Assembly: GCA_963752475.1 (NCBI GenBank)
Contig: CAVVYR010000006.1
Span: 1 to 64,000, forward strand
Direction: 5' to 3'
Length of the DNA stretch: 64,000 nucleotides
Source: an uncultured Chloroflexia bacterium
Lineage (GTDB): Bacteria; Chloroflexota; Limnocylindria; Limnocylindrales; CSP1-4
Part shown: piece by piece, positions 34,094-38,265 of the stretch
How positions within the stretch are numbered: the stretch's first letter is position 1
How the letters are laid out: each line of letters opens with the position of its first letter
Made by a program: the position numbers and the translations under genes
Notes under the pieces: model-generated
The model's input: the letters and a program-made list of their open reading frames with translations, nothing else
The model's database searches: none
What the model was told of the DNA's origin: nothing

Positions 34094-34902
34094 GCACCGG
34101 ACCTGCCGATCGCTACACCCATGGACACCACGATTCGGTGCTGGCGTCCCATCGCACGCGTACGGTGGCCAACTCGGCGGCCTATCTGCTGCCACGCCTG
34201 GGCCCTGGCCAGCGGCTGCTCGATGTCGGCTGCGGTCCAGGCACCATCACCGTCGATCTCGCTGCGCGCGTGGCTCCAGGCGAGGTCGTGGCCCTCGATC
34301 GTGAAGCCGACATGCTGGCCGAGGTCGCGCGGCTGGCCGCCGACAACGGCGCCTTCAACGTGACTCCGACCGTCGGCGACGTCTATGACCTTGGATACCC
34401 TGAGGGCGTCTTCGACGTCGTCCATGCCCACCAGGTCCTGCAACACCTATCCGATCCAGTGGCGGCGCTGCGCGAGATGCGCCGCATCACGCGCCCGGGC
34501 GGGCTCGTGGCAGCACGCGATGCCGACTACGCGGCCATGATCTGGTACCCGCTCGACCCACGCCTCGACCGATGGCTGGAGATCTACCACGCGGTCGCGC
34601 GCGCCAACCGGGCCGAGCCCGATGCCGGTCGCCGGCTCCTCGCCTGGGCACACGCGGCCGGGTTCTCCGACGTCGCCCCCAGTGCCTCGACGTGGGTCTT
34701 CGCCGACGAGGCCAGTCGTCGATGGTGGGGCGAGACCTGGGCCGAACGCACGCTGAGCTCGGACCTCGCCGGGCAGGCACTGGACAGGCGCATCGCCACT
34801 CGTGCGGAGCTCGAGGACGTGGCTGCCGGCTGGCGGTCCTGGCTGGCACACCCGGACGCCTGGTTCAGCGTCCTCCACGGGGAGATCCTGGCGACGCCCT
34901 AG
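34090..34902 (+). CDS. Class I SAM-dependent methyltransferase
   Basis: YTHGHH..LDVGCGPG..FDVVHAHQVLQH; ATGA overlap. Confidence 0.9.
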   Translation: MSTGPADRYTHGHHDSVLASHRTRTVANSAAYLLPRLGPGQRLLDVGCGPGTITVDLAARVAPGEVVALDREADMLAEVARLAADNGAFNVTPTVGDVYDLGYPEGVFDVVHAHQVLQHLSDPVAALREMRRITRPGGLVAARDADYAAMIWYPLDPRLDRWLEIYHAVARANRAEPDAGRRLLAWAHAAGFSDVAPSASTWVFADEASRRWWGETWAERTLSSDLAGQALDRRIATRAELEDVAAGWRSWLAHPDAWFSVLHGEILATP

Positions 34903-35720
34903 TTGCTGATCGAGCGGTACTTGCGCACTCCCAGCGGGGCGAACACCGCCAACATCACCACCATCCAGCCCATGGTCACCAGGACCGGGTACTCACCCGG
35001 GATGCCCTGGGCCGGGAACGGGTTGGGGTTGCCCCACAACTCTCGCAGCGACGCGGTCAGCGTGCTCACCGGGTTCCAGGCGGCGACCGGCTGGAGCCAG
35101 TCCGGCAGCGTGCCGATGGGCACGAAGACGTTGGACACGAAGGTCAGCGGCAGGATGACGATGAACGAGACCTGCTGGGCGACCTCGACCGACGGCAGCC
35201 GCAGGCCCAGCCAGACCCCCACCCACGACATGACGAAGGCATAGGCCAGGGCGCCACCGATGCCGAGCAGGAGCCCGATGAGGCCGGTGTTCACGGTCCA
35301 GCCCACGACGAAGCCCGAGATCATCAGCACCATGAGGATGCCGCCGTTGTAGATGACGTCCGAGACGGAGCGCCCGAAGAGCACGGCCGAGCGCGCCATG
35401 GGCAGGGAGCGGAAGCGGTCGATGATGCCCTTGTGCAGGTCCTCGGTCATGCCGATGGCGGTGGTGGCCGAGGCGAACGTCAGCGTCTGCACGAAGATGC
35501 CCGGCATCAGGTACTCGGTGTAGCTGGCGCCGCCGGGCAGGGGGATGGCGCCGCCGAACACGACCGAGAACAGCAGCACGAACATGATCGACTGGAGGAT
35601 GGCGAAGATGGCCAGCTCGGGGATGCGCGGGATGCGCTTGAGGTAGCGCCACGTCAGCATCAGCCCGTCGTCGACCGCACCTCGCAGCCCTCGGTCCGCG
35701 GCTGGTGCGGGGGCGCTCAC
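34899..35720 (-). CDS. ABC-2 permease (DrrB-like); GTG start created at the IS junction
   Basis: GIIDRFRSLPM and WNPVS motifs. Confidence 0.9.
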   Translation of the reverse strand: MSAPAPAADRGLRGAVDDGLMLTWRYLKRIPRIPELAIFAILQSIMFVLLFSVVFGGAIPLPGGASYTEYLMPGIFVQTLTFASATTAIGMTEDLHKGIIDRFRSLPMARSAVLFGRSVSDVIYNGGILMVLMISGFVVGWTVNTGLIGLLLGIGGALAYAFVMSWVGVWLGLRLPSVEVAQQVSFIVILPLTFVSNVFVPIGTLPDWLQPVAAWNPVSTLTASLRELWGNPNPFPAQGIPGEYPVLVTMGWMVVMLAVFAPLGVRKYRSISN

Positions 35721-37269
35721 TGGTGCACCCTCTTCCTGTCGGTAGTCGCAGATCGACTGCCGATGCACCCGAGGTGCCGTCGGGTCACTGCCCCGCTCGC
35801 TCGAACCTTCGAGGTCCAGCATGAGTTCCGCAGGACCCGGCGGTCATCCGGGACGCCGTGACCGTCGACAGGGCTGTGCGCCATGGCCATCACCGGCCGG
35901 GAGCGCCGATCAGTGAGCTGACAGGCAGATGCGTCCCGGCACCGAGATGCGGGTGCCTCCCCACTGGGATCAGCAGCGAGGAGGCTGACATGCAGTCTGC
36001 CAGTATCACCCCGAGTCGGGGCTCGTCCGACCAGCCCGTCAGCGTCGCCGTCACCGGTGGCGTGGACTGGGCCAGCGCCGATCATGCCGTGGCCGTCGTC
36101 GACGACGATGGCCGCCAGCTCGCCCGCGAGCGCGTCGAGCACACCGCCGCGGGCCTGCGGGCGATGGTGCGGTTCCTGGCCGATCATGGCGTGGCCGAGG
36201 TCGCCATCGAGCGTGGCGACGGCCCGGTGGTCGAGGCCCTGCTCGACGCCGGGCTGACCGTCGTCGTCATCAGCCCCAACCAGCTCAAGGGCCTCCGTTC
36301 GCGCTACGGCTCGGCCGGCAACAAGGACGACCGCTTCGACGCCTTCGTGCTCGCCGACACCCTGCGCACCGACCGGGCCCGGCTTCGCCCGCTGACCCAG
36401 GACACCGAGGCCACGCGGACCCTGCGCGCCACCGTGCGGGCCCGTCGCGACCTGGTCAGGCACCGCGTCGCGGTGTGCAACCAGCTTCGCGCCCACCTGC
36501 AGGCCACCTTCCCCGGCGTGGTCGGCCTGTTCGCAGAGCTGGACTCGCCGATCAGCCTGGCCTTCCTGGCCCGCTTCGACTCCCAGGCACGTGCCGACTG
36601 GCTCTCCCCCGGGCGGCTGGCGGCCTGGCTGGCCAGCGTCGGCTACAGCGGCCGCAAGGACCCCGCCGACCTCCATGCCCGACTGCAGGCCGCACCCCGG
36701 GGCCCGGTCGGACCCGACGGTGCCGCCCGGGCCCATGTCACCCGCGCCCTGCTCAGCGTGCTCGACGGCCTGGTCGAGCAGATCGGGACCCTCGAGGCGC
36801 AGATCACCGAGCAGCTCGCCCTTCACGCCGACGCCCACATCTTCCGGTCCCTGCCCCGCAGCGGCACCGTCCGCGCCGCCCGGCTGCTCGCCGAGATCGG
36901 CGACGTCCGCGCCCGCTTCCCCGACGCCGCCTCCCTGGCCTGCCTGGCCGGCGTCGCGCCCTCGACCAGACAGTCCGGCAAGCACCGAGCCGTCACGTTC
37001 CGCTGGGCGGTCGACAAGGAGCTCCGCGACGCGGTCTGCGACTTCGCCGGCGACTCCCGACGCGCCAACCCCTGGGCCGCGAAGATCTACGACGACGCCA
37101 TCGCCCGGGGCAAGGACCACCCCCACGCGACCCGCATCCTGGCCCGTGCCTGGCTCGGCGTGATCTGGCGCTGCTGGCAGGATGACGCCGCCTACGAACC
37201 CGCCCGACACCACGCCCTCCAGGCCATGCAGGACACCGCCATGGCGGCCCAGGGTTGACACAGGGCTAC

Positions 37270-37273
<4 letters not shown>
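35717..37273 (-). CDS. Antisense host-initiated ORF across IS110 (hed-like)
   Basis: 518 codons from the original permease ATG to a TGA overlapping the new GTG. Confidence 0.45.
35760..35925 (+). ncRNA. Putative IS110 bridge RNA
   Basis: The non-coding end contains GCATGAG (rc of target CTCATGC), ACAGGGCT (donor left) and CAGTGAG (rc of donor CTCACTG) within stem-loop contexts. Boundaries are approximate. Confidence 0.7.
35990..37258 (+). CDS. IS110 DEDD recombinase/transposase
   Basis: GVDW, AIE, KDDRFDA and GVAPSTRQSG motifs; GAGGAGG SD. Confidence 0.95.
   Translation: MQSASITPSRGSSDQPVSVAVTGGVDWASADHAVAVVDDDGRQLARERVEHTAAGLRAMVRFLADHGVAEVAIERGDGPVVEALLDAGLTVVVISPNQLKGLRSRYGSAGNKDDRFDAFVLADTLRTDRARLRPLTQDTEATRTLRATVRARRDLVRHRVAVCNQLRAHLQATFPGVVGLFAELDSPISLAFLARFDSQARADWLSPGRLAAWLASVGYSGRKDPADLHARLQAAPRGPVGPDGAARAHVTRALLSVLDGLVEQIGTLEAQITEQLALHADAHIFRSLPRSGTVRAARLLAEIGDVRARFPDAASLACLAGVAPSTRQSGKHRAVTFRWAVDKELRDAVCDFAGDSRRANPWAAKIYDDAIARGKDHPHATRILARAWLGVIWRCWQDDAAYEPARHHALQAMQDTAMAAQG
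37255..37260 (+). promoter_or_regulatory. -35 box for an IS circle-junction promoter
   Basis: TTGACA near the element end. After circularisation CACCCT would lie 18 bp downstream. Confidence 0.55.

Positions 37274-38265
<992 letters not shown>

Follow-up and report, generated by a model that had tools for sequence, protein, structure and literature searches.

We analysed a 64,000-nucleotide stretch of DNA from an uncultured Chloroflexia bacterium (contig CAVVYR010000006.1, positions 1 to 64,000; hereafter the window), in which an IS110-family insertion sequence (IS) occupies the ATGA overlap of an ABC transporter ATPase/permease gene pair (region 35716-37273). A single open reading frame (ORF), antisense to the transposase, enters this element at the host start codon and leaves it at a stop codon that overlaps a rebuilt start for the permease. 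Comparison of the element with its relatives indicates that selection acts on the openness and the phase of this frame, and not on the peptide that it would encode. We infer translation and reinitiation from the sequence, and on balance we favour the explanation that ribosomes are relayed across the element, which would keep its insertions into operons non-polar.

The upstream host gene, on the minus strand at 37270..38265, encodes a DrrA-like ABC transporter ATPase (PF00005, ABC_tran, and PF13732) whose C-terminus agrees with those of uninterrupted orthologs. Its stop codon TGA (37272-37270, minus strand) reads TCA at 37270-72 on the plus strand and overlaps the ATG that empty sites identify as the original start of the permease (37271..37273, minus strand). 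This ATG is now codon 1 of an antisense ORF of 518 codons plus a TGA stop (35717..37273, minus strand), which resembles the hed frame of IS900 discussed below, and the host Shine-Dalgarno (SD) sequence GAGGAGG lying 7 nt 5' of the ATG (37281..37287, minus strand) now heads that ORF. An earlier note on this DNA had claimed that the frame opened by the host ATG at 37273 crosses the entire 1553-bp element without a stop, and both the ORF list and the sequence bear this out. CTCA is present at both element ends (35716-19 and 37269-72) with a spacing of 1553 bases, and the ORF terminates, as the note had also read it, at the TGA contained in the left copy (35719-35717). The sequence further agrees that this TGA overlaps a new permease GTG (35720-35718), giving GTGA at 35717..35720 on the minus strand, and that the IS end supplies an SD-like AGGAAGAGGG 7 nt 5' of the GTG (35728..35737, minus strand; duplex energy -12.5 kcal/mol). 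The minus strand at the left junction thus reads AGGAAGAGGG-TGCACCA-GTGAGC. The downstream host gene that begins here, an ABC-2 permease of 273 aa (34899..35720, minus strand; PF01061, ABC2_membrane), is intact, and it shares 93-95% identity with its nearest uninterrupted orthologs from its second codon onward.

The ATGA junction that the earlier note had reconstructed for the site before insertion was supported by two kinds of empty site. The ATPase stop overlaps the permease start in 9/9 uninterrupted orthologous loci from genomes of the same genus, as ATGA in seven and GTGA in two, and one of these orthologs reads ATG AGC GCT CCC, matching the reconstruction. In addition, a 1289-nt contig from run X4, an RNA-labelled sediment library, joins 35716 directly to 37270 and represents an IS-free allele, ~5% diverged, of a related strain. 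The four sequencing runs were used as Logan contigs, which give no strand, ends or level of any RNA; this applies equally to the contigs from RNA-labelled libraries that cover parts of the element and carry no strand or level.

Considered by itself, the feature would be expected by chance in roughly 1-2% of cases and was chosen after the fact, making it weak without comparison. The antisense ORF lies codon-for-codon opposite the transposase, and the caution in the earlier note that such a frame is often open opposite GC-rich genes proved well founded: the genome is 68% GC, and stops are absent from the codon-aligned antisense frame of 68/539 host ORFs of 380-480 codons and of 580/2736 random 423-codon gene windows. 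Across the 270-nt non-coding end the antisense frame has 0 stops and the other five frames have 1-3, and this end is stop-free in 21% of dinucleotide shuffles. The phase would be right by chance 1 time in 3. We therefore looked to the relatives of the element. Scanning a single genome from each species yielded 456, of which 80 loci (67-93% identity, nearly all from Actinomycetota) were kept. Of 83 loci with a transposase match, 66 could be scored with both ends, the remaining 17 being dropped for a contig end or a non-matching end.

In these homologs the right end reads ..TTGACACAGGGCTA-CT and the left end CT-CACTGGTGCACC.., nearly always with a G before the left CT. Because the ends are conserved and the flanks variable, the core can be identified as CT, and the CA that follows it as borne by the element on the left and by the target on the right. 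In the window, the left CT core is at 35716-17 and the right copy at 37269..37270 (both plus strand), the CAT after the latter being target sequence, as the change from a conserved right end to variable sequence in the 80 homolog loci indicates. The element proper lies between the two cores (35718..37268, plus strand) and measures 1553 bp with one core. All 66 scored loci have the CT core at both junctions, with left ends of 253-310 nt and right ends of 13-28 nt. We grouped them by the target-derived base after the right CTCA into 53 elements at ATGAG or GTGAG, hereafter start-targeting, and 13 others at CTGAG, AAGAG, CCGAG, TCTAG or TTGAG.

The two groups differed sharply. The antisense frame is open from the junction ATG or GTG to the left-junction TGA in 49/53 start-targeting elements vs 0/13 of the others (Fisher p 1.2e-10, a value overstated by the kinship of the loci). 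In the open start-targeting elements the TGA overlaps a GTG, or in L031 an ATG. The four start-targeting exceptions look decayed or altered: stops accompany indels in L035 and L051, L048 is a phase-0 element, and L068 carries CTGA in place of the left CTCA. The non-coding end, in which the earlier note had proposed that antisense stops should be depleted, lacks them altogether in 49/52 start-targeting elements. Homologs that sit at other sites, vary in phase and carry stops, which the note had named as evidence against its reading, do exist (13 of the 66), and they are always the same elements, which supports the link between frame and target rather than refuting it. L048 deserves mention for its own sake: its core-to-core length is 1518 and its antisense frame, which is stop-free, runs into a 95-codon downstream ORF, an arrangement that would give a fusion.

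The contrast extends to codon usage in the transposase. Among start-targeting elements 0/21310 transposase codons are TCA, CTA or TTA, vs 53/5226 among the others. Host-gene rates predict 79-107. The GC content at third codon positions (GC3) is 0.88 in the start-targeting group vs 0.80 in the others. This does not explain the difference in stops, since start-targeting members with a GC3 of 0.76-0.80 are open and the retargeted elements L022 and L028, at 0.86-0.90, carry stops. On a maximum-likelihood tree of the transposases, the non-start state requires five changes, at least four of them forced by well-supported branches. The retargeted elements accordingly represent at least four lineages of independent origin, with 3-5 stops opposite the transposase in every one, and the comparison indicates that loss of the frame on retargeting happened repeatedly. 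Retargeting is real and not a matter of off-target insertion, because the guide in the non-coding end (described below) changed along with the target.

Several observations on the retargeted and unscored loci may be recorded here. Nine retargeted elements (L066, L067, L071, L072, L075, L085, L044, L047 and L059) sit in a repeat, TTTGCCCGCCTC-[TC]GAG-CGACAA, that looks intergenic and offers several sites per assembly. The non-coding end of L028, from Kribbella, is partly N-masked, so that its stop count there is a lower bound. What follows the transposase stop is different in three of the unscored loci, L026, L043 and L049, which have ..CTTGACACCGGGCCGGTCCGCTGCC.. in common there and may form a sub-family with a different right end.

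Length and phase provided a second line of evidence. Intact elements have 18 different core-to-core lengths (1520-1631), all of them 3n+2, which answers affirmatively the question in the earlier note of whether length mod 3 is conserved. Between the left core and the start of the transposase, 14 lengths (253-310) occur, and these share one phase in 49/52 start-targeting elements, with 5/13 of the others in that phase, so that conservation of phase goes beyond the triplet constraint on the transposase itself. The short right end, of 13, 19, 25 or 28 nt, is likewise in phase. In an alignment of non-coding ends (A1, with the window copy L001 as the reference), the net indel was a multiple of 3 in 24/24 start-group members, although 20/24 contain indels that are not multiples of 3 and that are compensated elsewhere, in some cases ~200 nt away. 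Homologous sequence between the compensating indels is read in a different frame, and that frame is open too. Two kinds of variant end were seen among these lineages: a tandem duplication of the left terminus and first hairpin (~45 nt), found in L017, L019, L025, L027 and L037, and a right end with repeated TTGACACAGGGC, found in L037, L057, L062 and L077. All variant-end lineages keep the 3n+2 phase. The transposase region of L019 is in addition 63 nt longer.

These properties bear directly on the proposal that the antisense ORF encodes a working protein, as Hed has been taken to be in IS900, expressed from the promoter, SD and ATG of the host, with frame and end point being maintained on account of that protein. 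In its favour are the wide conservation of the ORF (49/53 start-targeting elements, 6/6 in a clade of 40% identity and 5/6 other distant plasmid relatives, both described below), its decay once the start-codon target is lost, as expected of a gene that can no longer be expressed, and the published name and interpretation of IS900 hed in the part of PMC8141618 drawn on here. However, the sequence between compensated frameshifts, up to ~200 nt of it, has moved into another frame from lineage to lineage. There was also no additional constraint at synonymous sites of the transposase (codon identity over expectation of 1.13-1.15 in start-start pairs vs 1.10-1.15 in start-other pairs), no codon periodicity in the non-coding end (column entropies of 0.415, 0.515 and 0.416; permutation p 0.77) and no Pfam match for the antisense ORF. 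Relatives without the ORF occur as identical copies at two or three sites per assembly (L066=L071=L072, L067=L075, L044=L047), indicating that the ORF is not needed for transposition. Finally, neither the far-end SD-like motif nor the overlap of stop and start, GTGA in one clade and TAATG in the other, is expected from a protein function. We consider a protein-coding role improbable on these grounds.

The second clade comes from plasmids of Streptomyces and Embleya and is 39-42% identical to the window element. Its ends, CT-CATTAGAGGACC.. and ..TTGACTCAGGAAA-CT, differ from those of the first, and its antisense frame of 494 codons runs in 6/6 scored loci from the junction ATG or GTG to a TAA, with a rebuilt ATG overlapping this stop (TAATGAGC). 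These loci share the phase of the first clade (D = 1481) and have GAAGGGATGG or AAAGGATGG 5' of the rebuilt ATG, and their other two frames contain 9-20 stops. L106, a seventh locus whose end is a variant, reads alike. The annotated downstream gene begins exactly at the junction in five records, and in two the annotated upstream gene ends in ATGA. As a separate observation, three different Streptomyces plasmids (L104, L105 and L106) each have a rebuilt gene of 216 codons at the left junction (locus 251-901), which is annotated in one record as a DDE-type integrase/transposase; the clade may repeatedly target the start of a mobile-element gene.

Among six further relatives, at 34-46% identity, the codon-aligned antisense frame is stop-free in five with a GC3 of 0.77-0.90, from plasmids of M. 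avium, M. intracellulare, Variovorax, Mesorhizobium and S. atratus, and has three stops in the sixth, from Pseudonocardia. The nearest mycobacterial plasmid relatives are 45-46% identical. In the five open relatives, ORFs of 446-502 codons terminate at a stop overlapping a start-like codon. In the M. avium plasmid relative, L096, an annotated gene ends 66 nt before the transposase start, and this locus was scored for the antisense frame alone. With the ends of these five being provisional, they are only a sign that the open frame is old and widespread.

We then turned to the sites that the elements occupy. The 53 elements at ATGAG or GTGAG junctions always carry the transposase antisense to the start, and the conserved target, G-CT-CA[TC]-[GC], places the crossover beside the start codon. 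A survey of target ORFs covered 36 distinct start-group targets flanked by 400 nt or more on either side. An ORF of at least 100 codons starts at 21 of them, one terminating in the overlapping TGA precedes 22, and 17 are bordered in both ways. The earlier note had suggested that targets would prove enriched for ATGAG starts or ATGA overlaps, and such enrichment was found: 17/36 targets have long ORFs on both sides, compared with 16.5% of 339 GCATGAGC sites and 5% of 8304 [AG]TGAGC sites in this genome (binomial p 1.7e-5 vs 0.165, with one genome as background). Enrichment at operon junctions is expected from the survival of harmless insertions, and it could also reflect further target preferences. 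All three copies in the host genome follow ORFs of at least 330 codons ending in ATGA. Their targets are the ABC ATPase/ABC-2 permease pair, a 2-oxoacid dehydrogenase E1 gene followed by a 79-aa lipoyl-domain gene, and, for a truncated third copy, two Opp/Dpp-type ATPase genes. Apart from this, L036 and L063, which belong to different branches of the transposase tree, sit in two assemblies at the start of seemingly the same gene (ATGAGCGT[GT]CTGGTGTGGGT..., a 120-codon ORF), which suggests independent insertions at one preferred target.

SD or SD-like motifs occur at both junctions. A host SD precedes the junction codon in 17/45 start-group targets vs 0/13 others. At the far end, an SD-like run (AAGGA, GAGGA or AGGAAG) lies 7-10 nt 5' of the rebuilt start in 21/27 distinct start-group left ends vs 0/7 others, where SD-like denotes a duplex energy of -8.6 kcal/mol or lower against the anti-SD sequence. 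About 5% of random 18-mers in the genome bind as strongly (5th percentile, -9.1 kcal/mol). L022 has lost the SD-like motif along with the frame, and its nearest relatives keep both.

The earlier note had described a non-coding end of ~270 bp that stays open in antisense; the absence of stops was confirmed, but the note had missed that this end, judged from its conserved fold, is a bridge RNA gene whose target guide spells the start codon. RNAalifold, applied to 28 left ends, gave a consensus of 67 pairs, 27 of them with compensatory changes, with one terminal hairpin and two long stems, each interrupted by an internal loop. In the window, this bridge-RNA-like structured RNA gene with its two internal loops would extend over approximately 35740..35989 on the plus strand. 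The 3' side of the first loop has the form N-[A/G]TGAG, the reverse complement of the core plus the right target. In the window copy it is the guide GCATGAG (35819..35825, plus strand), complementary to CTCATGC, and its assignment is supported by covariation: the guide tracks the target across homologs, with CATGAG replaced by CGTGAG, CTGTGAG, ACTGAG or TAAGAG. On the 5' side of the same loop, GCTCGCT (35795..35801, plus strand) is a candidate guide for the left target. It matches only CG-CT or G-CT of the targets in this genome, with 5-8/9 at scattered places, and was assigned tentatively from the fold and the other homologs. The second loop would bind the donor (35867..35918, plus strand). 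It contains GACAGGGCTG (35867-76), in the same sense as the right end, and GATCAGTGAGC (35908-18), the reverse complement of a CT-CACTGATC-like left end, so that the donor guides GACAGGGCTG and CAGTGAG match the element ends; the loop is conserved in 27/28 aligned homologs, with L028 masked there. An Rfam scan of 35400-37600 with E values up to 1 returned no bridge RNA family and only a chance match to EAV_LTH at E = 1. Since the antisense frame is stop-free across the non-coding end, it overlies a structured RNA gene on the opposite strand.

Overlapping stop and start codons, such as ATGA and TAATG, mediate translational coupling in bacterial operons. Junctions of these same kinds stand before and after the element, with the difference that a spacer ORF of ~500 codons, for which no protein function is evident, now lies between the genes. 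In the explanation that we favour, the guide spells the start codon plus AG(C), so that the target is G-CT-CAT as read with the transposase, or ATGAGC as read with the target gene. It therefore lands, in a single orientation, on the start codon of genes beginning Met-Ser, often where this overlaps the stop of the preceding gene (ATGA). Recombination at CT would leave the upstream TGA, the host SD and the start codon in place at the head of the antisense frame. At the other junction it would set the SD-like motif and a GTG (or ATG) of the element before AGC, the second codon of the target gene, which is thereby rebuilt as GTG-AGC, and the two host reading frames would both stay complete. Host ribosomes that start or restart at the host ATG would translate across the element, including the bridge RNA gene, stop at the TGA or TAA and be able to restart one or two bases away at the rebuilt start. 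A spacer translated in this way should avoid the polarity that comes with untranslated RNA, such as Rho-dependent termination, and keep the downstream gene or genes expressed, and the insertion would then be of low cost to the host. A scan for promoters and terminators found nothing on either strand and no terminator-like site in 35500-37500, which is weak evidence.

A number of points weigh against a ribosome relay. Translating ~500 extra codons at every passage is costly. The two full copies in the genome are recent, and the intact permease consequently says little. No long downstream ORF is present at 15/36 start-group targets, some of which lie only at the stop of an upstream gene, and in the five open further relatives the overlapping start opens ORFs of just 13-40 codons. 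The SD-like motif is located where the promoter or 5' end of the bridge RNA is expected and could be conserved for that. The unscored loci, 17/83, include at least three (L026, L043 and L049) with a different right end. Lastly, the frame may have a protein function that tolerates almost any sequence.

A further possibility is that the open frame serves regulation of the element itself, ribosomes on read-through antisense RNA affecting how this RNA meets the transposase mRNA or the bridge RNA, for example by preventing duplexes or transcriptional interference, or by coupling transposition to expression of the target gene. The ORF does lie opposite both the transposase and the bridge RNA, its openness is constrained and its sequence is not, and the frame is lost where elements sit in repeat-like targets that are not translated. 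We nevertheless regard this as unlikely, because it leaves unexplained the exact end of the frame at a stop overlapping the rebuilt start, the SD-like motif and the enrichment at operon junctions. Finally, that the frame merely reflects composition, with its end points a coincidence of the CTCA core, is very hard to credit: 13-21% of comparable host genes and the shuffles cited above are indeed open, and the left-junction GTG and TGA persist in retargeted elements because the donor end is conserved, but the zero count of stop-complement codons among 21310 within one family, the 18 lengths in a single phase with compensated frameshifts, the independent frame losses on retargeting and the same design in a 40%-identity clade with different end sequences place the feature, on the comparative data, far beyond chance.

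The element belongs to the IS110 family by the domains of its transposase, a putative bridge recombinase of 422 aa (35990..37258, plus strand) in which Pfam identifies a DEDD/RuvC-like N-terminal domain (PF01548, 2e-36, residues 24-175) and a Tnp C-terminal domain (PF02371, 1.2e-18, residues 283-367). The hed ORF of IS900 reportedly goes back to Doran et al. 1997 (Microbiology 143:547). In the sections of PMC8141618 used here, hed is described as an ORF opposite the transposase that spans the whole element, lacks a ribosome-binding site (RBS) or start codon and is of unknown function, and the IS900 target motif is given as CATGNNNNNNTCTCCTT, CATG plus the RBS complement, with oriented insertion at translation initiation signals. 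The statement in the earlier note that IS900 inserts at translation starts and has an antisense hed agrees with that account. The same sections allow a comparison by description. IS900 likewise is an actinobacterial member of the IS110 family, oriented at initiation signals and spanned by an antisense ORF without an RBS or start of its own. Its motif CATG-N6-TCTCCTT, which includes the RBS complement, is not matched here (PMC8141618, same sections). Further differences from that description are that the crossover of the present element falls inside ATG|AG and duplicates the start codon (ATGAG ... GTGAG), and that the ends are not the same. The window element is thus an IS110-family member that, on its sequence, behaves like a hed-bearing element, with kinship to IS900 compared by description only (PMC8141618, in part).

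The element also resembles the bridge-RNA elements of the IS621 type in anatomy, as far as the text of PMC11208160 (Durrant et al. 2024) describes them. Both have a CT core and a recombinase that combines DEDD and Tnp domains. In both, the long non-coding left end folds into an RNA whose target and donor loops carry guides for the respective sequences, and the right end contains a -35-like TTGACA. This TTGACA is conserved among our homologs, and no clear -10 was seen in the left end, where a promoter across the circle junction would place it. The ends of the window element, CACTGGTGCACC.. and ..ACAGGGCTA, are by reading not inverted copies of each other, so that there are no terminal inverted repeats. 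Elements of the IS621 type target repeats such as repetitive extragenic palindromes (REP), according to the same text (PMC11208160), whereas the guide here encodes a start codon. Unlike what that text reports for them, the present element has a selected open frame that overlaps the RNA gene on the other strand. Neither start-codon targeting nor an antisense ORF is mentioned in the searched text of the bridge RNA and seekRNA papers (PMC11208160, PMC11187229). In the literature searched, we found nothing on a relay or a role in non-polarity, and only PMC8141618 describing hed. What appears to be new is, first, the comparative proof of selection on openness and phase and of frame loss on retargeting, and, second, the overlap with a bridge RNA gene, the start codon encoded in its guide and the far-end overlap of stop and start seen in two clades.

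Insertion sequences in operons are normally taken as polar, and a ribosome relay, if true, departs from that. Non-polar cassettes have been engineered so that their end supplies an RBS and a start codon in frame with what remains of the interrupted gene. The insert end supplies an SD and a start here as well, so that the remainder of gene and operon would still be translated, with the difference that the natural element would use read-through over its whole length, not stops followed by a restart. If the relay is real, hed frames, whose function was described as unknown in 2021 in the portion of PMC8141618 drawn on here, would gain one that lies in the act of translation rather than in its product. 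In nature, the element would also clearly exemplify a frame that is selected for being open and not for its peptide, and that overlies a structured RNA gene. Natural bridge-RNA guides would prove tunable to a functional signal, the start codon at operon junctions, beyond repeats. The relay would further suggest a rule for designing programmable insertions of DNA that leave operons undisrupted. There would also be a warning for annotation, in that ORFs of 450-520 codons opposite IS110 transposases would be selected frames and probably not protein genes. More tentatively, and at somewhat less than even confidence, we suggest that a broad bridge-RNA branch of IS110 elements, in Actinomycetota and possibly Pseudomonadota, may be translationally transparent, with IS900 hed a ribosome conduit and not a protein gene.

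The remaining observations concern the copies in this genome. The assembly of run X1, the likely source run, breaks at the element ends and yields a separate 1561-nt contig at 35715-37275, whose depth is ~2x that of the flanks, which fits a second full copy in the genome. The two full copies differ at 3/1555 bases. The third copy, at C6:339362-340419 (L003 1501-2558) outside the window, is decayed and separates the two Opp/Dpp-type ABC ATPase genes. Missing here are the initial 499 nt of the element as well as the beginning of the downstream gene, and the right end lacks one base (TTGACAAGGG for TTGACACAGGG). Its right junction again shows an ATGA overlap, following an ORF of at least 500 codons.

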